64,000 bases of DNA from an uncultured Gammaproteobacteria bacterium (GTDB lineage Bacteria > Patescibacteriota > Microgenomatia > Levybacterales > GWA1-39-11). Positions 6,685-23,800 of this stretch are shown here, one piece after another. A model generated the notes under the pieces. That model did not search any database, was not told where the DNA came from, and worked only from the letters and a program-made list of their open reading frames with translations. The stretch covers positions 64,542 through 128,541 of the forward strand of contig CAZXFJ010000001.1 of assembly GCA_964640435.1 (NCBI GenBank). Direction: 5' to 3'. The position numbers and the translations under genes were made by a program. Every line of letters begins with the position of its first letter. Position 1 is the first letter of the stretch.

Positions 6685-9600
6685 TTATCTTCTTGTTTCT
6701 CTTTTTGTGTTAAACCACATGAAGTAAACTGTTGGAATGAAGAACAACATGATTATTCCTGAGAATGTAAGTCCTGCAATAATTGCTCCTCCTAGTCCTC
6801 GCCATAATGGATCAGTAACAGTAATTGGAATAAGACCCAAGATTGTTGCAAGAGATGTTAATGCAATTGGTTCAAGTCGAGATGCTGAAGCTTCGGAAAT
6901 TGCTTCAATAAGACTCATATCATGTTTTTGGTTTTCAACGATTTTATCAACAACTAGAATAGAATTTTTAACAACAATTCCAAAAAGAGCCAGTACTCCA
7001 ATAAGTGCTGGGAATGAAAGTGGTGTTCCGGTTAGTGCAAAAATTACAAATACACCAGAGATTGAAAGTGGAATAACAAGCATAACAATTAATGCTCGTC
7101 TGAATGATGAGAACTGAATAACCATTGTGACAATAATTAAGAAGAATGAAAGAATCATCGCTGTGAGAATTGAGTTTATTGAGTTTTGATTTTCTTCATT
7201 TGCTCCTCCAGTTTTCCATTCATACCCTGATGGCAAGTGAAGATCACTATCAGCAAACTTGATTAATTCTGTATTAATTGTTTGTGAATTAAATCCTCGT
7301 CGAGCAGCAGCAGAAATTGAAATAGTTCTCTTACCACCTTCACGAGTTATTTGTGTTGGATTGTTCTCAAGCTTTAATGTTCCCAGTGAGGCAAGAGGAA
7401 TATTTCCTGTTGGTGTAGGAATATTAATTTGGTCAAGAGTATTTACAAAAGATGTTTCATTATAAAGCCTTAGCGTAATATCTTTTTCTTCAGTTTCACC
7501 TGGGAATTTATTACTTTCAAATTTAATCCCTGATGCGTACAGCCTTAGAAGACCACCTAATTGATCAACGGATATATTATTATCAGCAATAATTTCACTA
7601 TTTGGAACAAATACTATCTTACTTGTTCCTGGTTGAATTGATTTCTCAGCGTTTGCTATACCAGGGTTTTTTTCAAGATATGCAACGACTTCATCTGCTT
7701 TCTTATTGAGAACAGACAAGTCATCTCCTACAAGTTTTATTTGAACATCTGCTCCAACTGGGGGACCACCAGATTGTTCAATAACCTGAAACTTTCCTGC
7801 TTGGTAATTGCTGAATTTGTTGCGAAGCTTTTCTGCTATTTCAAAAGATTCTTCTCTTTGACCTTCCTTTTTAAGATTCAATGAATATAGAAGACTATTT
7901 GAGTCACCTTGAGTTCCTCCACTTTCAGTATTAATTGAAGTTCCGAGATCAAGACTTACGAAATTAACACCGGGAGTTTTGCTAATTTCCGAAAGCATTC
8001 TTAAACCTTCTTTTTTAGTTACATCAACATTGGTTCCAGATGCAAAATCAATACTTGCATAAACTATATCTGAATCAGTTTTTGGAAAGAATTCATTTTT
8101 AACAAATCCAAATGGTAAAAGAAGGAATGAAAATATAGAAAAGATTACAACCATGGTCACAACCATTCTTCGGTTTTGTCGACTTGAAATAACTTTTTGA
8201 ATTAAGTCCTTGTATGCATGATTAATTCTGTCGAAGCTTATAACACCTTCTTCATAATTTCTCGATCTCAATGAATTTAATGTACGACCAAGTCTTGTTT
8301 TTGATGAGAAGCGTTTAGTTTGCATGTTTCTTACCCCTATGATCACTTTCTCTCTTAGTATGTATACGACCATAAGTAATGAAATCAGCGCTACTATTTC
8401 AAAAGCGAATAAGTTACCTCTCGGAATAACCGAGAATAATATTCCTGCCATCATTAAGACAAATATGATTTGGAAAAGTATTTTTACTCTTCCAGGAACC
8501 TGAGGTCTTAGTAAGATAACGACGAGCGGAAGTGTGATAAACATTGCAACAAAGAAAGAAGAAATAAGCGCAGTTGACACAACTATTGGAATTGATTTAA
8601 TAAATTCACCAATAATTCCACTTGCTAAAAGTAATGGTAAAAATGCCCAAACAGTAGTAATTGTTGTTGTTGCAACTGGAGTTAAAAAGTCACGCCATAC
8701 GAGAAGTCCTGTTTCAATCGGTGTAAATCTTTTCGTCTTGTAGTAAAAGCTCATTGCAGAAATAACAACAACTGTATCGTCCACTAAGAGTCCTAGGGAT
8801 AAGATAAGAGAGAAAAGAGAAAGAAAATTAAGCGTAATTCCTGTTTGCTGCATTATTATAAAGGTTATTAAGAAAGATAATGGTGCAGAAAGAGAGGATA
8901 CAACCGCCTGTCTTGGTCCAAGGAAAATAAATAGAACAAGTACGACTAAGAATACAGTGATAAGAAAATCACGTGTAAGCTCAGAAAATTGATGATCAAT
9001 TTCTTCAGAAGTGTTTACTAAATTAACGGCTTCAAACCTGCCTTCGCCACGAGCAGCAATTTCATCATCTACAGTTTTATGAGCAGCACTTACAGCTCGG
9101 TTTATGTTAAATGTTTTAACACGTAAGACATTAAAAGTAACAGATCTTTGTGATTCTCTTCCAGGGTATGCGATAAATGATTGATTCTGTCCAGGTTTTG
9201 GACTTTCATAGATCTGAGCTATTTCAGACAATGAAACATTTTGCCCATTTAAATTTACTCTTGTTTTTCTTATGTCATCAATTGTTGAAATTGCAGGGTC
9301 GATTGTTAGTGAAAAGTTGCTATTTTCTGTTCTAACAGACCCTGCTGGAAAACTCTTAAATCCACTAGTTACTGCAGATGATAACTGGAATGGATTGACT
9401 CCATATGAAGAGTAAACCTCAGGGTTAACTATTATTTTTATCTCTGTTTCCTCAAGACCAGCGACTCCAACTGAATCAATTTCTGGTAAATCTTCTAGTT
9501 TTTGTTTTAGATGGGTTGCAAATTTGAAAAGACTTCCATCATCAGCAGTTGTTGTTAGAACAAAAGTCCAAACTGGAGAATTCTCAAAGTCTAATTTTAT

Positions 9601-10041
9601 GACACGAGGAGAAATTACATCATCGGGTAAGTCAGTTATTGAGTCAACCGCAGATTGTACATCAGATTTTGCTTTATCAACATCAACTCCTGATTCAAAT
9701 TCAATTGTTACAGTTGAAGCATTTTCAACAGAATTTGAAGTTACAGTTTTTACTTTATCAAGACTGTTGACAGCATCTTCAATAGGTATAGTTACAAGCG
9801 ACTCAACGTCAGCTGGTCCTGCTCCTGGTAAAACAGTAGAAACCAATACATATGGTAGGTTAACTTGGGGATTTAGATCTCGAGGTAGAGTAAAAAACGC
9901 GTTAAGACCAACACCTATTACTAAAAGGAGTAATAGAACTACTAGTCTTGGATTCTTCAGATAAGAAGCTACTTTTGAATTAGCAAGCTTTTGGTCGAAT
10001 CTGAGGAATTTTAAAAATTCATCTTTTCGTGGTTTTGGCAT
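6685..10041 (-). CDS. RND-family efflux transporter (AcrB/MMPL-like), 1118 aa
   Basis: 12-TM RND topology with two large extracytoplasmic loops and a conserved C-terminal TM bundle. Immediately downstream (minus strand) of an adaptor gene. Confidence 0.8.
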   Translation of the reverse strand: MPKPRKDEFLKFLRFDQKLANSKVASYLKNPRLVVLLLLLVIGVGLNAFFTLPRDLNPQVNLPYVLVSTVLPGAGPADVESLVTIPIEDAVNSLDKVKTVTSNSVENASTVTIEFESGVDVDKAKSDVQSAVDSITDLPDDVISPRVIKLDFENSPVWTFVLTTTADDGSLFKFATHLKQKLEDLPEIDSVGVAGLEETEIKIIVNPEVYSSYGVNPFQLSSAVTSGFKSFPAGSVRTENSNFSLTIDPAISTIDDIRKTRVNLNGQNVSLSEIAQIYESPKPGQNQSFIAYPGRESQRSVTFNVLRVKTFNINRAVSAAHKTVDDEIAARGEGRFEAVNLVNTSEEIDHQFSELTRDFLITVFLVVLVLFIFLGPRQAVVSSLSAPLSFLITFIIMQQTGITLNFLSLFSLILSLGLLVDDTVVVISAMSFYYKTKRFTPIETGLLVWRDFLTPVATTTITTVWAFLPLLLASGIIGEFIKSIPIVVSTALISSFFVAMFITLPLVVILLRPQVPGRVKILFQIIFVLMMAGILFSVIPRGNLFAFEIVALISLLMVVYILREKVIIGVRNMQTKRFSSKTRLGRTLNSLRSRNYEEGVISFDRINHAYKDLIQKVISSRQNRRMVVTMVVIFSIFSFLLLPFGFVKNEFFPKTDSDIVYASIDFASGTNVDVTKKEGLRMLSEISKTPGVNFVSLDLGTSINTESGGTQGDSNSLLYSLNLKKEGQREESFEIAEKLRNKFSNYQAGKFQVIEQSGGPPVGADVQIKLVGDDLSVLNKKADEVVAYLEKNPGIANAEKSIQPGTSKIVFVPNSEIIADNNISVDQLGGLLRLYASGIKFESNKFPGETEEKDITLRLYNETSFVNTLDQINIPTPTGNIPLASLGTLKLENNPTQITREGGKRTISISAAARRGFNSQTINTELIKFADSDLHLPSGYEWKTGGANEENQNSINSILTAMILSFFLIIVTMVIQFSSFRRALIVMLVIPLSISGVFVIFALTGTPLSFPALIGVLALFGIVVKNSILVVDKIVENQKHDMSLIEAISEASASRLEPIALTSLATILGLIPITVTDPLWRGLGGAIIAGLTFSGIIMLFFIPTVYFMWFNTKRETRR

Positions 10042-10042
10042 A

Positions 10043-11551
10043 TTAGTTACTTATTTTTACTTTTTCGCCTTCTATGACATTTCTATCCAAAATTACTGAA
10101 TCCTGTGAACCAAGTCCAGCAGTAATAGCTACGTTTGATCCAACTATATCTCCTAGTTCGACTTTTTTAGCAACAACTTTTCCATTTTTAGCAACGTATG
10201 TATAAGCTCCCTCTTGGGTTTGGAAAACAATATCTATAGGAAGGTATGGAATAGTTGATACTGAATCAGCGTTTCCTATTGGTATTTCTACCTTTATATA
10301 CTGACCATCTGTTACTGATGAATAGAGCGTATCAGGGAGAGCATAAATAACTGAATTTAAGGGTCCGTCAGTTGCTTCATTTGATACAAATTCAGGCATA
10401 ATATTGTACTTTTTACCTTTTATATAAAAAGTGCTTTCTTCAATTCGTGAAACTTTACCAGCTGTTTCGTAGGGAACTGTAACGGTAGCTGTTGCTGCTT
10501 GATTATTGCTCGATATTGTTACAAGTGGAGTACCTGGATTTACGGCTTGGCCATAGCTTACATGTACTTTTTCTACAACCCCATCAAATGGTGCTGCTGG
10601 ATACATTGTTGCTTCGGAAATCTGAGCAAGCTGAAGTTGAAGCTTGCTTATTTCAAGACCCATTCTTAAAGCTTTTTCTTGTACATCAAGCTGTTTAAGT
10701 GTTAAGTCGTGAGCTAAATCAGCAAGCCTCGTAGGAGGATTATTTGTATCTGCCGCAAATCTTGCTTGGCGTTGAGCTGCTTCAAGTTGTGCTTGTCCTG
10801 CTCTATATTGAGCAATTTGTTGTCTTAATCCAAGAATTTGATCAGGAGCTCCTCCACTGGATTCAAGAGCTGATAAACTTGTTTCAAGACTTACAATAAT
10901 TGAAGCATTTAAATCAATAACTCGTCTTGTATCTGTAATTGATTGTTCAGTAATTTGTCTTTGTTCATCAGCGCTCTCTCTTGATTGGTCAGCGATTTCT
11001 CTTTGGTTTCCTATTATTCCCTTCTGAGTATCAAAAGTATCTTTTGTATTCATGTACTGAGTTGCAGCAATCTCCCGAGATACACTTAATGCATTTCCTC
11101 CTTGGTAATTACTTGAAAGACTTACTAAGTTTTGACCGCGTGTAACAACCTGTCCTTCTACAACATTAATTCCTGAAACAATACCAGGAGTCTGTGCAAC
11201 TATTTGAATAACACCCTTTTTATCAATCTTTGCACTGAAAGTCGCACGAGGAGCTTTTCCAATTTGGTAAATAGCAACTTCTTTTGCGGCAGAGGCAGTA
11301 TTTGCTTCTTTTGGTTTTGGAGTAAGAATAGTATTTAAAATCATCACTAAAAGAAGTATGACAAGAGCAATGAAAAAACTCGCCATTGGGCGACGCTTAA
11401 TGTATTTAGTTGTTTTTGTTGTTAGACTTTTTCGTCTTTCTCCAAATCTAAGATCAGAAAACTTTGAAGATATTGAGTTTTTAACACGTGAAAAAAAAGT
11501 ACCTTTAGTACCACGAGAGGAGCTTCTTGATCGATTAATTCTTCTGGCCAT
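10043..11551 (-). CDS. RND efflux periplasmic adaptor (HlyD/membrane-fusion protein) with long coiled coil. True start may be internal at the MASFFIALV... TM anchor.
   Basis: TM anchor, long Q/A-rich coiled coil, and C-terminal beta-barrel/MP domains. Followed 1 nt later by the RND pump gene on the same strand. Confidence 0.7.
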   Translation of the reverse strand: MARRINRSRSSSRGTKGTFFSRVKNSISSKFSDLRFGERRKSLTTKTTKYIKRRPMASFFIALVILLLVMILNTILTPKPKEANTASAAKEVAIYQIGKAPRATFSAKIDKKGVIQIVAQTPGIVSGINVVEGQVVTRGQNLVSLSSNYQGGNALSVSREIAATQYMNTKDTFDTQKGIIGNQREIADQSRESADEQRQITEQSITDTRRVIDLNASIIVSLETSLSALESSGGAPDQILGLRQQIAQYRAGQAQLEAAQRQARFAADTNNPPTRLADLAHDLTLKQLDVQEKALRMGLEISKLQLQLAQISEATMYPAAPFDGVVEKVHVSYGQAVNPGTPLVTISSNNQAATATVTVPYETAGKVSRIEESTFYIKGKKYNIMPEFVSNEATDGPLNSVIYALPDTLYSSVTDGQYIKVEIPIGNADSVSTIPYLPIDIVFQTQEGAYTYVAKNGKVVAKKVELGDIVGSNVAITAGLGSQDSVILDRNVIEGEKVKISN

Positions 11552-11677
11552 TGAAAGGTTACCTAGAGGGAAATGATGGACAGTTCAAGTGGGCAGCCTG
11601 AGTAACTATAAGATTGTACGTTACGTGTACTGAAATGTCAAGAAATGATTGCAATTTAACATGCTATAATAGTACGC

Positions 11678-13471
11678 ATGACAGCTTCCCAAATTCTTGA
11701 AAAGTACATTAAGTTTTATGAAGAAAGAGGGCATAAAAGGATACCTAGTTCTTCTCTTGTCCCCCTTAATGACCCATCAACTTTATTTACATCATCCGGA
11801 ATGCAGCCATTAGTGCCATATTTATTAGGAGAAACACATCCTCAAGGTAAAAGACTGGTTAATTCGCAAAATTCATTCAGAGCTCAGGATATTGATGAGA
11901 TAGGGGATAGTCGTCATACAACTTTTTTTAGAATGCTAGGAAACTGGTCACTGGGTGATTACTTCAAAAAAGAACAGATTCCATGGGTTTTTGAACTTTT
12001 AACCAAAGAGTTAAATATTAATCCAGAAAAATTATACGTCACTGTTTTTGAAGGATATGGCGAAATTGAGCGTGATTTTGAAGCAGCAGATATTTGGAAA
12101 GAACTTTTTGCATCAGTTGGTTTAAGCGGAGAAGAGCGAATTTTCTACTATGGAGTTGAAAAAAATTGGTGGTCAAGATCTGGGGTTCCAGACAAAATGC
12201 CAGTTGGTGAACCTGGCGGACCTGATTCAGAAGTTTTTTTTGAGTTTGATGTAGAGCATGACAGACAATTTGGTGACAAGTGTCATGTAAATTGTGACTG
12301 CGGAAAATATGTAGAAATTGGGAATTCTGTTTTTATGCAATACAAAAAAAATACAGATGGTTTTGAAGAATTACCTCAGAAAAATGTTGATTTTGGTGGA
12401 GGGCTTGAGAGATTGGTAATGGCAACTGAAAGTAAGCAAGATATTTTTGAAACATCACTTTTTTTTCCAATTATTGAGACAATCTCAAATACAACTGCAA
12501 AGAAATACGAAGAAAATAAGCGAGAAATGAGAATTGTTGCAGATCATTTAATTTCTAGTGCTTTTATCACTGCAAATGGTGTTCGACCTGCGAATAAAGA
12601 GCAAGGGTATATCCTTAGGCGACTACTTCGTCGTGCTTTTGATAACTTTTATGCGCTTAATGGCGACACAATAGTTCCGATTATTGAAAAAATTGTTGAT
12701 CAATACAAAGAAACTGATGAATATTTATTAGAAAAATATGAAGAAATAAAGAATGTAATTCTCGAAGAAGAACAGAAATATAAGAATACTCTTTCAGAAG
12801 CAAAGAAGTTTATTTCCAAAAGATACAAAAGAACAGGTGATGAATTAATGGGTGTAACTGAAATATCAGCAGATGATGCATTTATTCTTTATACGACTCA
12901 TGGTCTTTCGCCAACTCAAATTAAAAGTCTTGGTTTTCAATTTGATGATCAAAAATTTGCAGAAAAAATGGAAGAGCATCAGAGTTTATCTCGAAAAGGC
13001 GCAGAGCATAAATTTGCTGGTGGACTAGCAGATCATGAGGAACTAACAATTAAAGGGCATACCGCAACTCACCTTTTACAGCAAGCACTACGTGATGTTT
13101 TAGGTGATCAAATTCACCAAACAGGATCAAATATTACAACGGAAAGATTAAGATTTGATTTTAATCTTGATAGAAAATTGACCGAAGAAGAAATTGAAAA
13201 GGTGGAAAAAATAGTTCGGGAAAAGATAGAAGAAAATCTTCCAGTTCGTTTTGAGATTATGCCAATAGAGAAAGCTCGTAAAACTGGTGCGATTGGTCTT
13301 TTTGATGATAAATACAATAAAGACGTAAAAGTATATTTTATAGGTGATTATTCGAAAGAATTGTGCGGAGGTCCTCATGTCGATTTTACAGGAGAGATTA
13401 AAAGTTTTAAAATAATTAAAGAAGAGAGCCTTGGTAAAACCAACAGGCGTATTTATGCTGTTGTAGAGTAG
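11678..13471 (+). CDS. alaS: Alanine--tRNA ligase, short form (catalytic + tRNA-recognition + editing core, no C-Ala domain)
   Basis: N-terminal AlaRS class II motifs (FTSSGMQP, WSLGDY). Editing-domain Zn motifs HTATHLL and CGGPHV. Only 597 aa. Confidence 0.85.
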   Translation: MTASQILEKYIKFYEERGHKRIPSSSLVPLNDPSTLFTSSGMQPLVPYLLGETHPQGKRLVNSQNSFRAQDIDEIGDSRHTTFFRMLGNWSLGDYFKKEQIPWVFELLTKELNINPEKLYVTVFEGYGEIERDFEAADIWKELFASVGLSGEERIFYYGVEKNWWSRSGVPDKMPVGEPGGPDSEVFFEFDVEHDRQFGDKCHVNCDCGKYVEIGNSVFMQYKKNTDGFEELPQKNVDFGGGLERLVMATESKQDIFETSLFFPIIETISNTTAKKYEENKREMRIVADHLISSAFITANGVRPANKEQGYILRRLLRRAFDNFYALNGDTIVPIIEKIVDQYKETDEYLLEKYEEIKNVILEEEQKYKNTLSEAKKFISKRYKRTGDELMGVTEISADDAFILYTTHGLSPTQIKSLGFQFDDQKFAEKMEEHQSLSRKGAEHKFAGGLADHEELTIKGHTATHLLQQALRDVLGDQIHQTGSNITTERLRFDFNLDRKLTEEEIEKVEKIVREKIEENLPVRFEIMPIEKARKTGAIGLFDDKYNKDVKVYFIGDYSKELCGGPHVDFTGEIKSFKIIKEESLGKTNRRIYAVVE

Positions 13472-13482
13472 GGCTAAATTTT

Positions 13483-15819
13483 ATGAATCTGCCTTTTTTA
13501 AAAAGCGAAAAGCCGCAAAAAAATTTCTTTTTATCTCTGTTGTACAAGCCATATAAGGTAAGTGCGATTTTATTTGAAGAGATAAATTCAAAACTTTTTA
13601 TTCTTTCCACTTCTGATCAAGATACTACGAAAAGTGCCGATGAGTTAACAGCTGATGAATTACTAAATATTTCAGATAAAGTTGTTAGTAGTGTTGAGCC
13701 AAGTCTTCCAGAAGGTGCAACAGTTGAAAAAACTATTTTTTCTGTTCCTTACGAGTGGGTTACGGATGGAAAAATTAGCGCTGAGTATCTTGAGAAGTTA
13801 AAAAAAGTTTGTCAGGATTTAGGACTTATTCCTGTGGGGTATTTAATTTCAATTGAAGCAATTATTTCCCATCTTGAGCATAAAGAGGGAGCCCCTGTTT
13901 CGGCTATTTTTGTTGAGGTTGCGGTCAAGAAAATGATTGTATATCTTGTCCGTGCTGGGAAAATCTTAGAGGTACATTCGGCTGACATTGAAAAAGGGGC
14001 ACTTCCCACAGCAGAATCCTTATTAAAACAAATAAATACCGTAGATGTTTTGCCTTCAAGAATTATTTTGCTGGATTATAAAAATGCAGCAGCAATGCAA
14101 CAGGACTTCATATCGCATACCTGGTCCAGTGATATTTCATTTCTTCATTTACCTCAGGTATTAGTTCTTGAAAAAGGTTTTGAGGACGAAGCGGCAGTTA
14201 ATGGGGTAGCTATACAAATGGACCTTGAGGTCTTACATGATACTTCCGCACTTAGGAAAGTAGAGAGCGAAAACATAAGTATCGGGGATAAAAAAGACAT
14301 TGAAGAACCTTTTGAAAAAGAAGAGGTTACTGAGGAAATTGAAGAGGCTTCAGCTGAAGAACTTGGTTTTGTTAAAGAGAGGGATGTCGCTGATGAAGAG
14401 ATAAAGATGGAAGAGGCTGAAGCTACTGGTGATGGGATTTCTGATGATGGCGAGCCTGTAATTCGAGAGGCAGGAAAAATAAACGAAGAGTCGAATATTT
14501 CTATAATTGAACCAAATGATCCCCCTGAATCTCAGGATTTTGATCCAGAAACAAAAAATGTTGCCGCAGGTATACCAATACTTTCATCATTACCCATGTT
14601 GTCAAATTTTTCTTTTCCAAGCACAATAAGAGAGATACAGAGGAAAATTAAAATACCTAATTTAAAATCTTTTTTTGCTGGAGGAAACAATTCGATGAAA
14701 ATAAAAGCTGCGATTGCATTAGGTGTAGTAATAGTTGCAATAGTTATTATCTCCGTTCTTTATTACAACGTAATTCTAAAAGCTGAAGTTTCTGTTTTTT
14801 CTGATAGAAAAACAGTAGATAAAAGTCAGGAAGTAACTTTTTCAGAAAACCCTTCTGACTCAAGCTCAATAAAAATAACTCTGAAAGAGCAAACAGAGAA
14901 AGGTGATGATACGAAGAATGCTAGTGGAACGAAAGATACTGGGGAGACAGCAAAGGGGAGTATTGTGGTTTATAACAAGACAGAAAGTGAGAAATCATTT
15001 CCTAAAGGAACTGTGATAGTTGGCCCAAATAGTCTTGAATTTGAAACTCAAAGTGACATTAAAATTGCCTCAACCAGTGCATTCTCAACAAGTCTTTCAT
15101 CGGCAAGTGTTAAGGTCGAGGCATCAAAGTTCGGTAAAGAATATAATCTTCCTTCAGGATCTAATTTCACAATTAAAGGTTCATCCTCAAGTAACTATAT
15201 TGCTAAAAATTCAGAAGCCTTGACTGGTGGTACTAAGAAAACAACCACTGTTGTTTCGCAAAAAGATTTAGATCAACTACTAACGCAAGTTGAAGAAAAG
15301 CTTGAGAAGAATGCGATTGAGGCAGTTAAACAGCAAATAGGTTCATCGGGGGATGTAATTCCTCAAGCACTTTCTGTTGACGTTGTTGAGAAAAACTACA
15401 CTAAAAAAGTTGGAGCAGAGAGTGGAAGTGTTGGGATTTCTGCCGAGGTTAGATATTCCATAGGAAGTTATAGTCGGGATGATATTCAAAAAGTTGTTGA
15501 TTCATTGTCTTCAGGAGATATACCTGGAACATATAAGATTAATATGGATAATTCAAAAATTGAAGTGGTCGATGTAAAAGTAGATAATGACAATAATGCC
15601 TCAGCAACTCTTAAGGTCAATGCAACTTACGAGCCGGAAATTGATAGTGCAAAATTGGCAACAGAGCTTAAAGGAAACGGTGAATCAAAAGCTATCGAAA
15701 AAATAAAAAGTATAAATGGGGTTACAGATGTTGTCATAAAGTTTTCAAGAAAAATTCCATTCTTCCCTAATATGCTGCCTGCTAATAGTAAAAACATAGA
15801 CGTACAGGTTAAGAAATAA
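13483..15819 (+). CDS. Hypothetical bitopic protein: N-terminal FtsA/PilM-like (actin-fold/SHS2-like) cytoplasmic region, acidic linker, central TM helix, Ser/Thr-rich extracytoplasmic domain
   Basis: N-terminal pattern resembles FtsA/PilM domain 1C/2A, but the glycine-rich ATP loop is degenerate. Single TM (AAIALGVVIVAIVIISVLYY) near residue 410. S/T-rich C-terminal half. Confidence 0.4.
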   Translation: MNLPFLKSEKPQKNFFLSLLYKPYKVSAILFEEINSKLFILSTSDQDTTKSADELTADELLNISDKVVSSVEPSLPEGATVEKTIFSVPYEWVTDGKISAEYLEKLKKVCQDLGLIPVGYLISIEAIISHLEHKEGAPVSAIFVEVAVKKMIVYLVRAGKILEVHSADIEKGALPTAESLLKQINTVDVLPSRIILLDYKNAAAMQQDFISHTWSSDISFLHLPQVLVLEKGFEDEAAVNGVAIQMDLEVLHDTSALRKVESENISIGDKKDIEEPFEKEEVTEEIEEASAEELGFVKERDVADEEIKMEEAEATGDGISDDGEPVIREAGKINEESNISIIEPNDPPESQDFDPETKNVAAGIPILSSLPMLSNFSFPSTIREIQRKIKIPNLKSFFAGGNNSMKIKAAIALGVVIVAIVIISVLYYNVILKAEVSVFSDRKTVDKSQEVTFSENPSDSSSIKITLKEQTEKGDDTKNASGTKDTGETAKGSIVVYNKTESEKSFPKGTVIVGPNSLEFETQSDIKIASTSAFSTSLSSASVKVEASKFGKEYNLPSGSNFTIKGSSSSNYIAKNSEALTGGTKKTTTVVSQKDLDQLLTQVEEKLEKNAIEAVKQQIGSSGDVIPQALSVDVVEKNYTKKVGAESGSVGISAEVRYSIGSYSRDDIQKVVDSLSSGDIPGTYKINMDNSKIEVVDVKVDNDNNASATLKVNATYEPEIDSAKLATELKGNGESKAIEKIKSINGVTDVVIKFSRKIPFFPNMLPANSKNIDVQVKK

Positions 15820-15820
15820 A

Positions 15821-16540
15821 ATGACTTATTATGAAAAAGGCGCAAAAGCGAGCCGAAAAAAATACGTTAAAATCCTTGGTAGTTTTTTTATAATTTTTGG
15901 AATCCTATTTTTTGGGTATTTTTTCTTTCCACTACTTTCCTACCAAGTTTTTTTAGCTAATGCATCAGAAGGGGATATTGAAGTTCCAATTCCTAAATAT
16001 CTAGTTGCAAAGAAAACGGGTAATATTTCAGATCTTATTTCAGAAAGAATTACATCGCTTACGACAAATTTTAATGATGCTCGTAATTGGTATCCAGATG
16101 TTCAAATTGCAAAACAAGAAGAAAGAAAAGTCGATAAGTATTCTCTATCCATACCAAAGTTAAAAATAGAAAATGCAGAAGTATCAACAACTGATTATGA
16201 TTTAGCAAATCATCTAGTTCAATACTTTGGCACAGCGATACCAGGTGAACCAGGTACAGCAATTATTTTTGGTCATTCAACAATTCCTGCCTGGTTTGAT
16301 CCTAAAAATTACAAAACAATTTTTGCAACATTGCACACTCTTAAGGTGGGTGATGAGTTTCAGGCGACAGTTGATGGAAAAACATATAACTATAAAATCT
16401 TCTCCATTGAAATTACAACACCAGAAGATACTAATATGTTTTCTCAGAGCTTTGATCATTCATACATAACAATTGTCACATGTACACCACCTGGAACTAT
16501 CTGGAAAAGACTTGTTGTGAGAGCAGCAATGGAAGAATAA
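15821..16540 (+). CDS. Sortase-family transpeptidase
   Basis: N-terminal TM anchor. Catalytic triad context IFGHS ... TIVTCTP ... KRLVVRA. Start is 2 nt after the upstream stop. Confidence 0.8.
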   Translation: MTYYEKGAKASRKKYVKILGSFFIIFGILFFGYFFFPLLSYQVFLANASEGDIEVPIPKYLVAKKTGNISDLISERITSLTTNFNDARNWYPDVQIAKQEERKVDKYSLSIPKLKIENAEVSTTDYDLANHLVQYFGTAIPGEPGTAIIFGHSTIPAWFDPKNYKTIFATLHTLKVGDEFQATVDGKTYNYKIFSIEITTPEDTNMFSQSFDHSYITIVTCTPPGTIWKRLVVRAAMEE

Positions 16541-16541
16541 A

Positions 16542-16757
16542 ATGGAAAACCAAGCACAAAATACTGATTTTGGAATGAATCAAGAGGATATTAAGAACTA
16601 TAAATTAAAAAGCTTTTGGAATACAATTAAATATTACTTGGCAAAAATAGAGCCAGCATTTGTAAAAATATTTCAAACAATATTGTACTGGACTATTAAA
16701 TTCTCGAAAGCATTTTTTAGTGGACTATTTCGTATGATTTTAGGAAAGGAAGTTTAA
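16542..16757 (+). CDS. Small hypothetical protein (71 aa), amphipathic/hydrophobic C-terminus
   Basis: ORF tightly packed between the sortase gene and the phosphorylase gene (TAATG overlap). No recognisable family. Confidence 0.3.
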   Translation: MENQAQNTDFGMNQEDIKNYKLKSFWNTIKYYLAKIEPAFVKIFQTILYWTIKFSKAFFSGLFRMILGKEV

Positions 16758-18028
16758 TGGAAGAACAAAATCTCGCTCTTGAAGCAATAAGAAAAAAGCT
16801 TGTAGGAAAAGAACTCTCATATAGAGAGATATATGCAATCATGGATCAGATTGCTCAGGAAAAACTTGGTGATGTTTTAACGACGTACTTTGTTGCGTCA
16901 GGTTATTCAGAAGGTTTTTCAGATGATGAGCTTTATTACCTAACAAAAGCCATGGTTGAAACAGGCGAGCATTTGGATTTTAGAGGAGTTGTTGCAGATA
17001 AGCATTCTATAGGTGGGGTACCAGGAACACGAGTGACAATGATATTAGTTCCTATAATTGCTGCTGCTGGATTTAAAATTCCAAAAAGCTCATCTCGTGC
17101 AATAACTACTCCGGCAGGAACTGCTGATGCAATGGAGGTTTTAGCTCCTGTAACATTCACTAAGGATCAGATATACAAAATTGTAGAAGAAACTAATGCG
17201 TGTATTGTATGGGGAGGGAGTTTTAAAATTGCTCCAGCGGATGATGAGATTATTAAAATTGAAGAACCGCTTGTTTTCGAGTCTTACGACAAAATTGTTG
17301 TTTCAGTAATGGCCAAAAAGGTTGCTTTTGGAGCAACTCATGTAATTATTGATTTGCCATATGGTAGAACTGCAAAAATCCATCGAACAGAAGAGGCAGA
17401 GGTATTAAAGAAAAAATTTGAATTTCTAGGGAAAAAATTTGGAGTTAAGATCAAGGCATCAATTCATAGAATTGAAGAGCCAGCAGGTGTTGGTATTGGT
17501 CCATTATTTGAGGCACGTGATTCATTGAAAGTTTTAGAACAAGTTGAGGATAGGCCAATAGATCTTGAAAATTTGGCTATTAAAACTGCTGCCGAGCTTT
17601 TAGAGCTGTGTCTTTCGGATGCAAATCAAGAAATAAAAAAAGAGGCAGAAAAATATGAAAATACCTTGGAGTGGGCGAGAGATATTTTGGTTTCGGGTAG
17701 GGCACATAAAAAAATGATGGACATAATAAAAGCACAAGGTGGAAAAAAGATTTCTTCAAAGGATTTAATTGGAGGAAAAAAGAGACTTATTATAAAAGCA
17801 GAAAAGAACGGAACAGTAAAGAAAGTTTCAAGTAAAAATATTACTCTACTTGCAAAACTTCTGGGTGCACCAGAGGATAAGGATGCTGGAATGGTCCTTC
17901 AGAAGAGAATTGGAGATAAGGTAGAGAAGGATGAAGAATTAGTCACTTTTCACACGGATTCAGCATATAGGTTAAAAGAGGCAACAGATTCTTACGATCT
18001 GTTCCCAATCTATGAAATTGAGAAGTAA
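16757..18028 (+). CDS. Nucleoside phosphorylase of the thymidine/AMP phosphorylase family (glycosyltransferase family 3)
   Basis: Signature DKHSIGGVPG. Overall collinearity with DeoA-type pyrimidine-nucleoside phosphorylases (about 420 aa). Confidence 0.75.
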   Translation: MEEQNLALEAIRKKLVGKELSYREIYAIMDQIAQEKLGDVLTTYFVASGYSEGFSDDELYYLTKAMVETGEHLDFRGVVADKHSIGGVPGTRVTMILVPIIAAAGFKIPKSSSRAITTPAGTADAMEVLAPVTFTKDQIYKIVEETNACIVWGGSFKIAPADDEIIKIEEPLVFESYDKIVVSVMAKKVAFGATHVIIDLPYGRTAKIHRTEEAEVLKKKFEFLGKKFGVKIKASIHRIEEPAGVGIGPLFEARDSLKVLEQVEDRPIDLENLAIKTAAELLELCLSDANQEIKKEAEKYENTLEWARDILVSGRAHKKMMDIIKAQGGKKISSKDLIGGKKRLIIKAEKNGTVKKVSSKNITLLAKLLGAPEDKDAGMVLQKRIGDKVEKDEELVTFHTDSAYRLKEATDSYDLFPIYEIEK

Positions 18029-19742
18029 CTCAGTTATCAAGAACTGGGTGTTTATTCTTTTCTTCCTTAACTTAATACTTTTTTTTATTTTTCTCATTAC
18101 CCAACACTTTCCCTTTTATGCAGTTTTTGCAAATATAGTTAGTATTTTTGCTATTACAATTTGGTCTTTAAATTTTCACAGGATTTATAACTATATTAAA
18201 AAAAATCCATTGGATTTAGTTTTATTTTTAATACTATTTTTCACAGCGTTTTTTATATATCAATATAAATTAGATATTGTTACCCCAGGAATTCAAAGTG
18301 ATGAAATTTCAATAATTGAAGCATCTGAGAAAGTGTCAGAGTTGTCAGAATTTATTCCATTTATAAATATAAATTATGGTCACCCCACTCCCCTTTTGTA
18401 TTTAACATCTGTTGCTATTGATCTATTTGGTAGAGAACCATTTGCAGGTCGTCTTCAAGGAATTATATTTGGTGCAGCATCGGTTGCCGTATTTTTTGTT
18501 CTCTTGAGAATATTCTTCTCAAGAAGTATATCTTTTGCAACATCACTATTGATGATGTTCGCATATCCATTAATCGTTCTATCTCGTTTAGCTTATGAGA
18601 TTACTCCTTCACTATTTTTTCAGATCGTTACAGTTATTTTTCTGTACTTATCTTTAAAGAGTCGTGATGTTCGTTATTTTTCAGCAGTTGGTATTTTTCT
18701 GGGGATGGGATTATTTACTTATGTAGGTTTTAGAACTTTTGCAGTATTAATTTTGTTACTTGCTGGATACTTTATATTTATAAAAACAAAAGATCATAAA
18801 AAAAGCAGCAAAGAGGCATTATTTGTAATCGCACCTCTTTTTATAGTTGCCTCTACTCTTGTTGCTTATAGCGTTGGACATTTTGGAGAAATCATGGAGA
18901 GATCAAGAGTATTATCAATATTTGGTCAAAGTCTTACAGTAGTAGAGATAGTAAAAGAATTGGGTGGAAATATCGCAAGACTTTCTTATATTTTCTTTTT
19001 TGAAGGCGATCCTAACTTAAAACAAAACCCAGTTGGAAGAAGCATTTTTGATATTGGAACATTTTTATTATTTGTAACTGGTTTGTTTTATTTATTTAAA
19101 GTCAAGAAATGGGTTTTATTATTACTTCTTATTTTCTTTATTCCTCCACTCATTAATGATTTCTTATCTCTTGAACGAATTCCAGAATTTCATTATTACG
19201 GAATTGGTCATCCAAGCACTTTAAGAATCGCAGGAATTATTCCCCCGGTGTTTTTTGCTGTTGCAGTAGCGCTGAATGGATTAAAAAAACAATTTGCAAA
19301 AATCAATGAGGGTATGGATATGATCTTAGTCCCATTAATATTAATTGTTATTATTTTCTACAATTGGGTCTCATACTTTAATCAACCTTTTAATATTTAT
19401 GATTATAAATTCAACGGTGCAATTGCGATGAATATAGTTCGTGAGATGAATTTAAGTAATGCAAAAAAAATCTGTGTTTCACCTCTTTATTTAGAAGATT
19501 ACCGTTTAAGATATTTTGCAAATAAGGATAAGGAAATAACAGAATTTTCTCCAAAGAGCGATGAAGAGATAATTAATCAAATAAATAAAAGTGATATGTG
19601 TTTTGTAGCAAGTGGAACATCGAATAAGAGCACTGTTGAAAGTCTGCAAAATTATATTCTTTCAAACCCAAATTCTAATTTTTCAATGTATGAATTGAAA
19701 AATCATTGGGGCTATATAGATGGTCTTGTCATAACTAAATAA
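18012..19742 (+). CDS. GT-C type polytopic membrane glycosyltransferase (ArnT/PMT-like)
   Basis: About 12 TM helices. First extracytoplasmic loop carries a DE motif (QSDEISIIE). Large C-terminal extracytoplasmic domain. Confidence 0.5.
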   Translation: MKLRSNSVIKNWVFILFFLNLILFFIFLITQHFPFYAVFANIVSIFAITIWSLNFHRIYNYIKKNPLDLVLFLILFFTAFFIYQYKLDIVTPGIQSDEISIIEASEKVSELSEFIPFININYGHPTPLLYLTSVAIDLFGREPFAGRLQGIIFGAASVAVFFVLLRIFFSRSISFATSLLMMFAYPLIVLSRLAYEITPSLFFQIVTVIFLYLSLKSRDVRYFSAVGIFLGMGLFTYVGFRTFAVLILLLAGYFIFIKTKDHKKSSKEALFVIAPLFIVASTLVAYSVGHFGEIMERSRVLSIFGQSLTVVEIVKELGGNIARLSYIFFFEGDPNLKQNPVGRSIFDIGTFLLFVTGLFYLFKVKKWVLLLLLIFFIPPLINDFLSLERIPEFHYYGIGHPSTLRIAGIIPPVFFAVAVALNGLKKQFAKINEGMDMILVPLILIVIIFYNWVSYFNQPFNIYDYKFNGAIAMNIVREMNLSNAKKICVSPLYLEDYRLRYFANKDKEITEFSPKSDEEIINQINKSDMCFVASGTSNKSTVESLQNYILSNPNSNFSMYELKNHWGYIDGLVITK

Positions 19743-19774
19743 TATTTTTTAAATATGGTAAAATAGCATTACAG

Positions 19775-20719
19775 ATGAAGAGACTTACAACAGTAATAAT
19801 TTTACTGCTCGTACTTATCACCGCTGGCTTTTTCTACTGGACTTCCGGAAATCAAGCTGTAAATCCTAAGGATAAATCAAACAAAATTTTTGTGATTAAT
19901 CGTGGTGAAGCAGTCCGTGAAATTGGTAATAGTCTCAAAAAAGAAGGATTAATTCGTGACCCTGTTGTTTTCTTCTTATACATAAAGATGAATGGTAAGG
20001 ACAAAAATATTCAAGCAGGAGACTACAAGCTTTCCCCATCAATGAATCTTGCTCAAGTAATTGAAGCGATGCAGCATGGAAGTCTTGATATATGGGTTAC
20101 AGTTCCTGAAGGTTTAAGAGCGGAAGAAATTGCAGATATTTTAAAGGAAAATATTCCTTCATATGATGAAAGCTGGAGGCCAATCTTAGTTGAAAATGAA
20201 GGTTATTTATTCCCAGACACGTATTTAATTCCCAGAGATGCAACAGTTGAGCAGGTTGTAACGATGATGAAAAACAACTTGGCAAATAAGCTTAAAGATT
20301 CAAATATAACTATTGACGATCCTCGTATGCTAAGAGCTCTTACCATGGCTTCACTCATTGAGCGTGAGGCAATTACAAATGAAGAAAAGCCTCTTATTGC
20401 TGGAGTTATTAATAACAGGCTTTCATTGGGTATGCCTCTTCAGATTGATGCATCAATTCAATATGCAAAGGGAAATAAGAGCAAGTGGTGGCCTCAGGTA
20501 TTTACAGATGACTATAAGAATGTAGTTTCTCCCTATAATACCTATCTTAAGCAAGGTCTTCCTCCGGGACCTATTGCAAATCCAGGTATAACAGCGATTA
20601 ATGCAGCTCTTAATCCACAGGATAATGACTACATATATTATATTCACGATAAGAACAAAGTAATTCATCCAGCAAAGACTATAAACGAACATAATGCGAA
20701 TGTAGAAAAATATTTATAA
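19775..20719 (+). CDS. mltG: Endolytic murein transglycosylase MltG (YceG family)
   Basis: N-terminal TM anchor and a YceG-like domain with a conserved catalytic Glu region (LIEREA). Confidence 0.8.
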   Translation: MKRLTTVIILLLVLITAGFFYWTSGNQAVNPKDKSNKIFVINRGEAVREIGNSLKKEGLIRDPVVFFLYIKMNGKDKNIQAGDYKLSPSMNLAQVIEAMQHGSLDIWVTVPEGLRAEEIADILKENIPSYDESWRPILVENEGYLFPDTYLIPRDATVEQVVTMMKNNLANKLKDSNITIDDPRMLRALTMASLIEREAITNEEKPLIAGVINNRLSLGMPLQIDASIQYAKGNKSKWWPQVFTDDYKNVVSPYNTYLKQGLPPGPIANPGITAINAALNPQDNDYIYYIHDKNKVIHPAKTINEHNANVEKYL

Positions 20720-20727
20720 ATTGGGTG

Positions 20728-20756
20728 TTGACAAATAGATGGATATAAGATATAAA
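20728..20756 (+). promoter_or_regulatory. Sigma70-like promoter for rpoBC: TTGACA, 17-nt spacer, TATAAA
   Basis: TTGACA at 20728-20733 and TATAAA at 20751-20756, with an exact 17-nt spacer. Confidence 0.55.
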
Positions 20757-20775
20757 TAATCCCAACCTAAATCGT

Positions 20776-20807
20776 GGGGGGAGTTAAGAACTTCCTTCCC
20801 TTTTTTT
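20776..20807 (+). terminator. Leader hairpin (GGGGGAG...CTTCCTTCCC) followed by T7 in the rpoB 5' leader; candidate attenuator
   Basis: G/C-rich imperfect stem followed by TTTTTTT, located between the promoter and the rpoB ATG (20844). Confidence 0.35.
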
Positions 20808-20843
20808 GTTAAAATTTCGGCACTCTTCTAGAAATTATTTCAG

Positions 20844-23800
20844 ATGGCAAAAAACATAGGCAGTAATAAACAATATTGGGGTAAAGAGTCAAAATCTTTA
20901 CCGGAATTTGATCTGTTATCCATACAGAAGGCTTCTTATAAGTGGTTTATTGAAGAAGGCATTCGTGAGGTAATCGATGAAATTTCTCCGATTGAGGATT
21001 TCACGGGTAAAAACTGGGAACTTGTTCTTGGTGACTACAAACTTGGTGAACCAAAAATCACAGAAGAAATGGCTCTTGCGAAGGGTCTTACATATTTTAC
21101 TCCTCTAACAGTTGAAGCAACTCTCGTAAACAAAAAATCAGGTAAAAATGTTAAGCAAAATGTTTTCCTAGGTGAAGTGCCTAAGATGACTGACCGTGGA
21201 ACATTTATTGTTAACGGTATTGAACGTGTTATCGTTGGGCAAATAGTTCGATCTCCTGGAGTTTTCTTCACAGCAGCAGAAGATCCAATAACAGGTAGAA
21301 CCCTTTACACAGCCGAAATGAGACCAGTTCATGGTTCATGGCTTGAATTCTCAACAACAAGAACAGACATGGTTGTTGTTAGAATTGACCGCAGAAAGAA
21401 GTTTTTAGCTTCAGTTTTCTTAAAAGCTCTTGGAATTGATACAAATGAAGAAATTTATGAAAAATTCAAGGGAATTGATGGAGCAGAAAACTACATTAAA
21501 AACACAATTGAAAAAGACGAAACTCGTGGAGCAACTGACGCATTAATCGAAATCTTCAAGAAAATGAACCCAGGAGAGCCAGTCGTTATTGACACAATCC
21601 GTCAAAACTTCCGTGATTCATTCTTTGACAGACGTCGTTATGACCTTTCACGTGTAGGTCGTTACAAAGTTAACAAAAAGCTTGCTAATATCTCAAATTT
21701 TGAGGCTCAAGATGCGTTAACACTCACTATTAATGATGTTATTGGAATAATTTCATACCTAGTTCAGCTTGCTAACGGAAAGGGTAAGATTGATGATATT
21801 GATCATCTTGCAAACAGACGTATCCGCTCAGTTGGAGAACTTGTTCAAACAACAGCATTTAGAGTTGGAGCATTAAGACTTGAAAGAATAATTAAAGAGA
21901 AAATGTCTCTTGCATCAACTGAGGAGCAATTCTCACCAAGCCACTTTATTAATGCTCACCCAATAATTGCTGCTATTAATGAATTCTTTAGAACAAGCCA
22001 GCTTTCAGCTATTCTTGATCAAACAAACCCACTTTCAGAAATTGACAATATTCGCCGCTTGACTGTTATGGGAACAGGTGGAATTTCACGTGAGCGTGCT
22101 TCATTTTCAATCCGTGATATTAATGCTTCACAATACTCAAGAATTTGTCCTGTTAGAAGCCCTGAAGGTCCAAACATTGGACTTGTTACATATCTTGCGC
22201 TTTACGCAAGAGTTAACGAATATGGATTTCTAGAAGCTCCATATAAAAAGGTAGCAGCTGAAGGTAAAAAGCTTCGCGTAACAGACGAAATTGTATATCT
22301 TGATGCAGAAAATGAGATGGAAGCATACATTACTCACGCTGATATTAAAGTTGACGAAAAGGGTTACATTGTGGATGATCTAGTTCCAGCTCGTTACAAC
22401 GGAGAATACCTTGAAGTTGAAAAAGAGAAAATCCAATACATTGATGTTATTCCACGCCAGGTTGTTGGAACAAGTGCTGCTTTAATTCCATTTATTGACC
22501 ACGACGAAGCAAACCGTGCACTTATGGGAACTCACATGCAATGTCAGGCTGTTCCTTTAATTAAAGCAGAAGCTCCAGTTATTGGAACAGGTATGGAAGA
22601 AATGGTTTCAAAAGCTTTAGGTCGTGTTATTACAGCTCCATTTGATGGAACTGTTGAGTTTGTTGATGCAAACAAGGTTACTATTAAAGATGGAAGAAAC
22701 GAAGAAACATTTAAGATTAATAAATTTAAGAGAACTTCAAACAACACATTATTTAACCAAAGACCAATTGTAACAGTTGGACAAAAAGTTAAAAAAGGCG
22801 ACATTTTAATTGATGGTCCAGCCTCACAAGAAGGAGAACTTGCTCTTGGAAAGAACTTAGTTATTGCTTATGCATCATTTGATGGACTTGGATATGAAGA
22901 CGCTATCGTTATCTCAGACAGACTTGTTCAAAGTGACGCATTAACTTCAGTTCATGTTGAGAAATATGAAGCAACTGTTGTTGATACAAAACTTGGAGCT
23001 GAAGAAACAACTCGTGATATTCCAAACGTTGCTGAAGAAGATCTAGCAAATCTTGACGAAGATGGAATCGTAGTTGTTGGATCAGAAGCAAAACCAGGTG
23101 ACATTCTAGTTGGAAAAATTGCTCCAAAAGGTGAAACAGAATTAACAGCCGAAGAAAGACTTTTGAGAGCTATCTTTGGAGAAAAAGCACGTGAAGTTCG
23201 TGACACTTCACTTCGTATGCCACACGGTGAGCATGGAATTGTTACAAATGTTCAAATTCTTGACCGTGAGCGTGGAGATGAGCTCGAGCCAGGAGCAATA
23301 AGAAAAATTCAAATTGAAGTTGCACAAATTCGTCACGTTGTTGTTGGAGATAAACTAGCTGGACGTCATGGAAATAAAGGTGTTATCTCAAAGATAGTTC
23401 CAGATTCAGACATGCCATATCTTGAGGATGGTACACCAGTTGATATTATTATTTCTCCAATCTCAGTGCTTGGGCGTATGAATCTTGGACAGCTTCTTGA
23501 GGCTCATTTAGGACTTGCTGCAAGAAACTTAAATAAAAGAATTGCTCTTCCGGTTTTTGAAAAAATGAATGAAGATCAGTATGTTGATCTTCTAAAAGAA
23601 GCAGGACTTCCTGTAAATGGAAAACAAAAGCTTATTGATGCTCGAACTGGAGAAGCATACGAAAATGATGTTGTTGTTGGAATTGGATACATCATGAAGC
23701 TTATACACATGGTTGAAGATAAAGCACACGCTCGTTCAACTGGACCATACTCACTTGTTACACAACAACCTCTTGGAGGAAAAGCACAAATGGGAGGACA

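Follow-up and report, generated by a model that had tools for sequence, protein, structure and literature searches.

The window, which is the whole 64-kb stretch of DNA analysed here, contains a gene, termed X, whose product consists of an actin-fold domain, an acidic linker, a transmembrane (TM) helix and a baseplate-J-like ectodomain, in that order (Table 1). Gene X lies in a block ordered alaS, X, sortase, micro-protein, phosphorylase-like gene, (GT-C) and yceG/mltG. After yceG, a terminator-like hairpin at 20776-20798, recognized by consensus match only, is the sole strong site of its kind. The setting is a chromosomal housekeeping context, with FtsK and a RodZ-type HTH_25 protein encoded about 10 kb upstream and MurB within the window, and gene X shares the base composition of the surrounding DNA. 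The X family spans the whole Levybacteria group of ultra-small bacteria: a protein search returns 273 homologues, full length for the most part, and a GTDB scan returns 143 loci, the best 80 of which, all from Levybacteria, were retained. A profile search with the N-terminal domain yields 1,412 clusters at 50% identity, with the same architecture throughout the best 150 matches listed, and the best 120 hits of each of two protein searches are all close relatives. In public annotation its members are labelled ‘baseplate J/gp47 family protein’ or else hypothetical. In the full-text literature searched, neither a description of the architecture nor a paper on the family was found, and the word ‘baseplate’ is absent from the supplements of PMC6744442.

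Table 1 Features of the gene X locus in window coordinates
Feature	Position	Strand	Basis
Probable transcription unit/syntenic block	11678..20798	+	Gene order in 83 loci, terminator-like site
Gene X, 778-aa single-pass membrane protein	13483..15819	+	ORF call and homologues
Gene X residues 1-255, cytoplasmic actin-like (ASKHA) domain, probably reduced to the 1A+2A core, nucleotide-binding loops not conserved	13483..14247	+	
Gene X residues 256-405, acidic length-variable linker and basic juxtamembrane segment	14248..14697	+	Composition, gap-rich alignment
[F/L]-G-F motif, L294-G295-F296 of gene X	14362..14370	+	75-sequence conservation
Single predicted TM helix of gene X, residues about 406-432	14698..14778	+	Hydropathy
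Gene X residues 433-778, predicted folded extracellular module	14779..15816	+	AF2 model and Foldseek
Baseplate_J/GlxA-type beta-barrel of gene X, residues about 482-590	14926..15252	+	
Sortase, 239 aa, putatively membrane-anchored, N-terminal TM helix, conserved H152/C221/R230	15821..16540	+	Pfam, TIGR01076, orthologue alignment
71-aa micro-protein, conserved hydrophobic/amphipathic C-terminal half	16542..16757	+	Same-position ORF in relatives
GT-C gene, fourth gene after the gene X ORF	18012-19742		

In the predicted model, the head of X is built of two RNase-H-like subdomains, each with the beta-beta-beta-alpha-beta-alpha-beta-alpha order of the ASKHA fold. A structural search places FtsA first among its matches, with FtsA and PilM as the nearest solved structures. 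An earlier note, made from the sequence, had proposed an FtsA/PilM-type actin fold with 1C/2A-like patterns and suggested structure prediction as the check; the actin-like fold is borne out, but the 1C-like assignment is not, as no 1C/SHS2 insert lies between the core elements of the 255-residue model, and the 2B subdomain is also absent. The ATP-binding loop had been described as degenerate, which agrees with the alignment of 75 family members, where none of the phosphate-1 (DxG), phosphate-2 (DxGGGT) and adenosine (GG) motifs of ASKHA proteins is conserved. The phosphate-1 turn has no conserved Asp or Gly and reads R/K-x-x-K instead; the phosphate-2 turn is E-[IVL]-[GSA]-[KE]-K, compared with D-x-G-G-G-T in ASKHA; and E145, conserved at 83%, is the sole nucleotide-site residue left, these positions being placed by the strand order of the model and not via a printed structural alignment. 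From its sequence, the head is probably a stripped-down actin-like domain that works without ATP.

Neither Pfam nor NCBIfam recognises residues 1-255, whether in the window protein or in its 42 relatives. Kinship with FtsA at the sequence level was rejected, since an hhalign profile comparison with E. coli FtsA gives a probability of 0.1. An N-terminal ‘MxLPF’ peptide considered as a PilN-like motif was dropped because Pro4 is only 52% conserved in the 75 sequences. With E. coli FtsA as the query, tblastn finds no canonical FtsA across this one genomic region.

The head is followed by the highly acidic linker and the single TM helix that the earlier note had described, Asp and Glu making up 24.7% of residues 256-405. 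The linker has one conserved point, the [F/L]-G-F motif, in which Gly is 99% and Phe 100% conserved among the 75 sequences; of these, 88% begin the motif with Phe, whereas the window protein has Leu there. Kyte-Doolittle hydropathy exceeds 1.6 over a long stretch only at residues ~406-432, where it peaks at 2.9, and two isolated windows of 1.65-1.67 fall within the N-terminal fold. The Lys/Arg-rich sequence on the N-terminal side of this single hydrophobic segment suggests an N-in/C-out topology.

Outside the membrane, the predicted ectodomain has beta-hairpins at its N-terminal end, a beta-barrel, one helix of 27 residues and a pair of alpha/beta subdomains, modelled by AF2 with a pLDDT of 90.6. 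The earlier picture of a Ser/Thr-rich ectodomain of about 340 residues holds for size and composition (346 aa, 21.7% Ser+Thr), but the region is a well-folded multidomain baseplate-J/gp47-like module in the model and not of low complexity. Foldseek aligns it over 338-376 columns with baseplate J/gp47/TRI-2 proteins of 346-416 aa, at E values down to 2e-7, and solved wedge-protein structures are matched. At the sequence level, Baseplate_J (PF04865) scores 21.8 bits on the window protein against a gathering cut-off of 21.1, covering profile positions 20-110 of 255 only; 39 of the 42 relatives match it at E<0.01, the best at 4e-10. The N-L-P-S and G-G-T motifs are shared with diffocin TRI-2 and are ancestral Baseplate_J motifs. 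Going by the predicted model, the relatives of the ectodomain are phage/tailocin baseplate-J/gp47/TRI-2 proteins and the barrel domain of GlxA.

The sortase follows directly, as had been noted, with a single base between the TAA stop of gene X and its ATG. It matches Pfam Sortase (PF04203) at E 4.4e-22 (78.6 bits against a cut-off of 26.6) and TIGR01076 at 58.7 bits (cut-off 39.35), and an alignment of 77 orthologues shows conservation of 90% or more for its FGHST, TLVTCTPPGT and WKRL motifs, so that the enzyme appears catalytically intact by its motifs and membrane-anchored. None of the NCBIfam cut-offs for classes A-F is reached; class C comes closest (65 of 160 bits), followed by D (47.1 of 165), E (37.1 of 160) and F (28.7 of 166). 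By HMM and PDB comparison, its nearest kin are the pilus-type class C/D enzymes of Gram-positive bacteria, with which it shares the sortase domain, the H/C/R motifs and the N-terminal membrane anchor; it differs from them in missing the class cut-offs, in a peculiar NW[FY]P motif seen in the orthologue alignment, and in having no adjoining substrate or pilin gene. One sortase family is reported to be near-ubiquitous in Microgenomates (PMC6744442).

X itself would not be a substrate of this sortase. It carries no LPXTG motif with a hydrophobic stretch and basic tail, and its C-terminus, ...MLPANSKNIDVQVKK, is without a hydrophobic stretch. The tail is conserved, proline-rich and modelled with high confidence, and positions 4-5 of its ‘LPxxx’ vary across the family, in keeping with the earlier view that X is not a canonical substrate. 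A separate canonical substrate beside the sortase, which would have spoken against the scaffold proposal, is likewise not seen: scanned for sorting motifs, neither the 64-kb window nor 83 related loci yield an LPXTG-type substrate, and no fibre or pilin gene lies near the sortase in them.

The sortase stands immediately downstream of gene X in 80 of 80 loci. Their junction, an 8-nt overlap in 45 of the 80 and -8 to +19 nt overall, is the tightest and most uniform from alaS to yceG; the alaS-X junction is more variable, at -17 to 683 nt with a median gap of 18 nt. Gene X appears translationally coupled to the sortase and usually to the micro-protein also. The latter recurs in this place in about 64 of 76 loci (there are 66 ORFs of at least 30 aa, two of them without the motif), has the core IWPTIYRIINxxxYFxxxxIKxxxxxxIxQIKG and gives no family hit in Pfam, NCBIfam, PHROG or PADLOC. 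The co-occurrence check suggested earlier for the pair finds the sortase beside X in all of these Levybacteria loci, but the whole block of alaS, X, sortase, phosphorylase-like gene and yceG is syntenic as well, in every one of 83 Levybacteria loci; because of this and because the genomes are compact, adjacency alone does not single out the sortase as the partner of X. Mirror-tree analysis gives a raw distance correlation of 0.79-0.82 for X with the phosphorylase, above the 0.70 for X with the sortase. With the neighbour-gene signal removed, X and the sortase retain a partial r of about 0.38-0.39 (1 of 1,000 permutations), partial Mantel tests being over-optimistic for related sequences, and the partial correlation of X with alaS is about 0. 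This is weak evidence for a tie, since only the partial and not the raw correlation favours the sortase.

The GT-C enzyme, which the earlier note placed two genes downstream and saw as a possible O-glycosylating enzyme for the ectodomain, is the fourth gene after X, separated from it by the sortase, the 71-aa ORF and the nucleoside/AMP-phosphorylase-like gene. Among 61 loci, only 1, that of the window's own genome, has GT-C at this place, and the proposed tie was rejected on this ground. The gene inserted there in locus L003 is unrelated.

The actin-like head inside, the baseplate-like domain outside and the sortase gene always directly behind make X probably a scaffold for cell-surface building, as judged from sequence. 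The earlier proposal of a scaffold that links a cytoplasmic cytoskeletal element to surface assembly remains a reasonable one. More specifically, we tentatively favour X as a nucleotide-independent transmembrane adaptor that acts with the sortase, by analogy with GspL or PilM-PilN, in which a cytoplasmic component is likewise coupled to extracytoplasmic assembly. X would be a single-pass N-in/C-out envelope protein of Levybacteria. Its head, a minimal actin/FtsA/PilM-type fold of 1A and 2A with the phosphate and adenosine loops lost, would most likely serve as a nucleotide-independent docking module rather than a polymerising ATPase. A flexible acidic linker with the invariant G-F motif would join the head to the TM helix, and a compact module related to the baseplate-J (gp47/TRI-2) wedge would sit directly on the membrane outside. 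X, the sortase and the micro-protein would most likely form one membrane complex. In it, X as the adaptor would place or organise the anchoring of surface proteins to the wall by the sortase, or else the base of an appendage on the surface, relative to a cytoplasmic partner.

A rather doubtful but serious alternative gives X an adaptor role in cell division or elongation. An FtsA-like membrane tether with an FtsQ/DivIB- or MreC-like extracellular part attached would then couple wall synthesis to FtsZ or some other element of the cytoskeleton, and the sortase would be adjacent through block synteny only. FtsA is the top structural match of the head, the true TM helix could stand in for the FtsA membrane-targeting helix, and the linker is disordered, its invariant G-F motif resembling a short partner-binding peptide; the operon ends in yceG/mltG, with FtsK, the RodZ-type protein and MurB in the surroundings, and conservation covers the whole block and not the X-sortase pair alone. 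X lacks, however, the 1C (SHS2) and 2B subdomains, through which FtsA contacts late division proteins and FtsZ, as well as the conserved ATP loops. HMM and profile comparisons reveal no similarity to FtsA, a true TM helix and a 346-aa ectodomain take the place of the FtsA amphipathic helix, and the junction of X with the sortase is the tightest and most uniform in the block. The architecture of X is that of GspL, which combines a nucleotide-free actin-fold domain, a TM helix and extracytoplasmic alpha/beta domains; PilM and GspL share with it the cytoplasmic actin fold, bitopic membrane segment and extracytoplasmic domain. On these grounds, X could serve a type IV pilus, a competence apparatus or another fibre machine as an alignment component that resembles GspL or a fused PilM-PilN, and its head would dock an assembly ATPase. 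We consider this very unlikely: X lies outside any pilus or secretion locus, in a housekeeping context, with pilB/C/D/T/N/O absent from the 64-kb window and the flanks of 83 loci. It lacks the 1C subdomain that would form the PilN-binding groove, and its ectodomain is baseplate-J-like rather than of the ferredoxin-like PilN/PilO/GspL type. In addition, a complete Microgenomates genome has its PilM within a single type IV pilus locus (PMC7143001).

The kinship of the sortase with pilus-type class C/D enzymes, together with the conservation of L765-P766, K575 (88%) and K585 (93% of the 75 sequences), could also make X a sortase client, its tail (LPxxP..LPxN..NI) being cleaved and wall-linked, or an ectodomain lysine accepting an LPXTG-type fibre; X would then sit in the membrane as the base of an appendage built by the sortase. 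Phage baseplate-J proteins are fibre-docking platforms, which fits such a base. The chance of this is very low, as the residues after L-P vary and lead into no tail of hydrophobic or basic character, and the model of the C-terminal tail is of high confidence. The N-L-P-S and G-G-T motifs belong to the Baseplate_J ancestry and occur in diffocin TRI-2 too, and the 64-kb window and 83 related loci have no fibre or pilin gene nearby. Close to refuted is a phage-derived X, a prophage baseplate remnant or a phage-decoy or defence protein apart from envelope biogenesis. The Baseplate_J homology of the ectodomain and the public annotation speak for it, and baseplate J/gp47/TRI-2 wedge proteins and domain 2 of Streptomyces GlxA are indeed structural kin. 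Unlike these, X is membrane-anchored and fused to a cytoplasmic domain, and to our knowledge tail proteins have neither a TM helix nor a cytoplasmic domain. Sequence similarity is limited to ~100 residues, and the inter-domain geometry differs, with TM-scores of about 0.24. Every genome examined has X fixed between alaS and the sortase and is free of further phage genes nearby; no contractile-tail or injection gene (sheath, tube, gp25/W, gp48/I) occurs in the window or related loci, PHROG and PADLOC give no hits at the locus, and the base composition is that of the surroundings.

The nucleotide-independent adaptor acting with the sortase can be extended to a bolder, unlikely form, in which a domesticated phage baseplate wedge protein makes the outer face and an ATP-less actin fold the inner face. 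With the coupled sortase, X would then form the membrane base of a host-attachment appendage of Levybacteria, tied through the G-F peptide and the head to a cytoplasmic partner that is possibly linked to FtsZ or the cytoskeleton. If the adaptor reading is true, bitopic actin-fold adaptors exist beyond the machines of secretion and pilus assembly, and a minimal-genome lineage would have made them out of a phage baseplate module as well. X is a lineage-wide candidate for organising sortase-dependent surface assembly in a group of the Candidate Phyla Radiation, and surface assembly bears on host attachment by these mostly uncultured bacteria. The head of the family, unseen by any current Pfam or NCBIfam model, would with its ~250 aa offer a small test case for the role of an actin fold after loss of nucleotide binding. 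Pam, a new pilus system of Candidate Phyla Radiation bacteria, relies on a chaperone and has no relation to the X locus.

The best-supported reading of X, a 778-aa single-pass membrane protein encoded directly 5' of a sortase gene, is that of a transmembrane adaptor. On this reading, X would have an actin-fold head inside that acts independently of nucleotide, a flexible tether bearing one short conserved peptide, and, outside, a platform derived from a baseplate protein. It would be made together with a membrane-anchored, predicted active sortase and a micro-protein, and we infer this function for uncultured organisms.

In the model of residues 1-262 (alignment of 30 family members; pLDDT 88.8, pTM 0.83), the order beta-beta-beta-alpha-beta-alpha-beta-alpha occurs twice. 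This order is the signature of the actin/ASKHA fold, to which the N-terminal domain is assigned on its modelled elements. The actin-like fold proposed in the earlier note is thereby retained, while its 1C-like part is not, the 1C (SHS2) and 2B inserts being absent from the model. The domain matches no Pfam or NCBIfam family in the window protein or 42 relatives, and hhalign against E. coli FtsA gives a probability of 0.1, with no detectable similarity. The ATP site is degenerate, as suspected: in 75 non-identical family members, the phosphate-1 turn is R/K-x-x-K, the phosphate-2 turn is E-[IVL]-[GSA]-[KE]-K instead of the usual D-x-G-G-G-T, and the GG adenosine motif is not found. E145 is the only ATP-site residue kept (Glu 83%, Asp 9%). 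Because the loops were located by the order of the modelled strands, a loss of nucleotide binding is strongly inferred.

The acidic linker and single transmembrane helix of the earlier note are both present. The linker (residues 256-405) varies in length, contains 24.7% Asp+Glu, and leads into the one hydrophobic stretch, at about residues 406-432. A Lys/Arg-rich segment on its N-terminal side points, by the positive-inside rule, to an N-in/C-out topology. Some relatives carry an additional hydrophobic stretch of ~13 residues ahead of the helix, which we take as a peripheral segment and a caveat on the topology. The one fixed linker motif is [F/L]-G-F (Gly 99%, Phe 100% conserved); an invariant G-F within an acidic, otherwise unconserved region has the look of a short linear motif that would bind a partner.

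The ectodomain is indeed enriched in Ser and Thr (21.7%), but it is folded and not a loose stalk: its model, from 23 sequences, has a pLDDT of 90.6 and no low-confidence segment. Membrane-proximal beta-hairpins lead into a beta-barrel, after which come a 27-residue helix and two alpha/beta subdomains. The barrel belongs to the Baseplate_J family: the Pfam model scores 21.8 bits in the window protein (cut-off 21.1) and matches 39 of 42 relatives (best E 4e-10), and in the PDB the family profile hits TRI-2/CD1371, a baseplate protein of diffocin (E 3.6e-5 and 4.4e-6). In Foldseek, 338-376 columns align to wedge proteins 346-416 residues long (E as low as 2e-7), spanning nearly the whole 343-residue module; TM-scores are only ~0.24 because the domain arrangement differs. 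The barrel position is collinear, at residues 78-170 of 350 in TRI-2 and 54-156 of 346 in the X ectodomain profile. Given this collinearity and the near-full alignment, the ectodomain as a whole plausibly corresponds to an entire small wedge protein. Two conserved motifs, N-L-P-S and G-G-T, also occur in TRI-2, which marks them as ancestral to Baseplate_J and not as sorting signals.

A word-indexed protein search finds 273 X homologues. The best 120, most of them full-length proteins of 714-837 aa, have 31-100% identity, are named Levybacteria or 'Patescibacteria group', and are annotated 'baseplate J/gp47 family protein' or hypothetical. With the N-terminal domain as profile, an exhaustive search gives 1,412 clusters at 50% identity (658 with E <1e-30), and the best 150 all have the X architecture, fragments aside. 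Scanning a single genome for each GTDB species yields 143 X loci, the best 79 from Levybacteria or MAGs with like organisation. Many GTDB records with the block bear the title 'uncultured Gammaproteobacteria', 'Lysobacterales' or 'Saccharimonadales' (loci L007, L009, L013-L017, L020, L060, L077, L078 and others); mislabelling at submission or mis-binning of contigs is the probable cause.

The X-sortase pair is conserved: among 83 loci examined, the 80 reaching beyond X all have the sortase gene immediately 3' of it, in the same orientation. If the sortase is started at the codon closest to the X stop, the two genes overlap by 8 nt in 45 of the 80 and by 4 or 1 nt in 11, and are never more than 19 nt apart; independent gene calls in locus L004 give the identical 8-nt overlap. 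In the window, one base separates the TAA stop from the sortase ATG, in line with the direct succession noted earlier. Across the 83 loci the whole alaS-X-sortase-phosphorylase-yceG block is conserved, rpoB alone switching side (rpoB/rpoC lie downstream here), and the alaS-X gap has a median of 18 nt (range -17 to 683 nt). This block-wide synteny, in compact genomes, tempers what adjacency implies. The sole strong terminator-like hairpin in 11400-21000, a consensus match only, lies at 20776-20798, 3' of yceG, and fits one long transcription unit. The GT-C enzyme, once a candidate glycosylator of X, loses this link: it occupies its position in 1 of 61 loci, the window's own, and is an insertion specific to that genome. 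L003 has a different gene inserted there, unrelated to GT-C. The phosphorylase-yceG interval of other Levybacteria holds nothing or unrelated genes.

Features of the X block, window coordinates
Feature	Position	Strand	Basis or relation
alaS (alanyl-tRNA synthetase)	11678-13471	+	upstream of X
X, 778 aa	13483-15819	+	ORF
L294-G295-F296, [F/L]-G-F motif of X	14362-14370	+	family alignment
Sortase, 239 aa	15821-16540	+	Pfam PF04203, E 4.4e-22
Micro-protein ORF, 71 aa	16542-16757	+	ORF 3' of sortase
Nucleoside/AMP-phosphorylase-like gene	16757-18028	+	after micro-protein ORF
GT-C/PMT_2 glycosyltransferase	18012-19742	+	overlaps phosphorylase end by 17 nt
yceG/mltG	19775-20719	+	last of four genes after sortase

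Pairwise distance matrices of the block genes were compared across 57 genomes. The raw correlation of X with the phosphorylase (0.79-0.82) exceeds that with the sortase (0.70). After phosphorylase and yceG distances are regressed out, the partial correlation with the sortase is ~0.38-0.39 for both X domains (1/1,000 permutations), and that with alaS falls to ~0. This weakly supports X-sortase co-evolution, partial Mantel statistics being over-optimistic for related sequences. Of the block genes X evolves fastest, at a median identity of 33%, where the sortase has 47% and the remaining genes 51-69%; this rate fits surface exposure.

The window sortase exceeds the generic model TIGR01076 and reaches no class A-F NCBIfam cut-off; conservation of the motifs FGHST, TLVTCTPPGT and WKRL across orthologues is 90% or higher. 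An NW[FY]P motif common to Levybacteria sortases (residues ~89-92, ~60 residues ahead of the catalytic His) may form a lid-like or extension element particular to the clade. The micro-protein follows the sortase in ~64 of 76 loci, with the core IWPTIYRIINxxxYFxxxxIKxxxxxxIxQIKG, and has no match in family searches. Its length ranges from 36 to 89 aa, and its ORF frequently overlaps the sortase stop.

In design, X resembles GspL and the PilM-PilN pair, which couple a component in the cytoplasm to an assembly outside it, but its locus contains no pilus or secretion genes. In a complete Microgenomates genome, PilM lies in a separate pilus locus and MreBCD is present (PMC7143001). X also differs from FtsA in lacking the 1C/2B subdomains, the ATP motifs and a match to the FtsA model. 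The main rival, less probable than the adaptor reading, places X in division or elongation, with the sortase adjacency incidental; a search of this region with E. coli FtsA gives no canonical FtsA.

A role as sortase client or acceptor is not supported. The C-terminal tail is conserved (P759, P762, L765-P766, N771-I772) and modelled with high confidence, but positions 4-5 of its 'LPxxx' vary across the family, and the sequence ends without a hydrophobic or basic tail. Judged by these residues, X falls outside the canonical sortase substrates, in agreement with the earlier note. Nor is a phage remnant supported, searches against PHROG and PADLOC giving no hit. The adaptor reading assigns X to a known kind, the bitopic actin-fold adaptors; the family is real, lineage-wide and contains an unannotated domain. 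Neither the family nor an actin-fold/baseplate-J fusion was found in the full-text literature searched or the supplements of PMC6744442, which reports a near-ubiquitous sortase family in Microgenomates.

The rest of the window carries housekeeping genes (RNase J, FtsK, RodZ-type HTH protein, EF-G, EF-Tu, MurB, ribosomal proteins), and its composition is uniform, with ~35% G+C. The alaS product is short, at 597 aa: it stops after the tRNA_SAD domain and lacks the usual C-terminal part; those of relatives in the same block have 602-627 aa. The FtsK gene (1461-3608) adjoins a gene at 3617-4243 (+) that fuses a RodZ-type HTH_25 domain to a Glucodextran_B-like domain, a type that recurs in DNA flanking the related loci L002 and L004. 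An AcrB-type RND transporter (1,118 aa) and a HlyD-type membrane-fusion protein are encoded at 6685-11551 (-), although the bacterium is expected to be single-membrane. Adjacent genes at 35962-37146 and 37148-38944 (+) resemble both ATP-citrate lyase subunits (Citrate_bind with an ATP-grasp N-domain; Citrate_synt with Ligase_CoA), a pair unexpected for a Patescibacteria-type genome with reduced metabolism.
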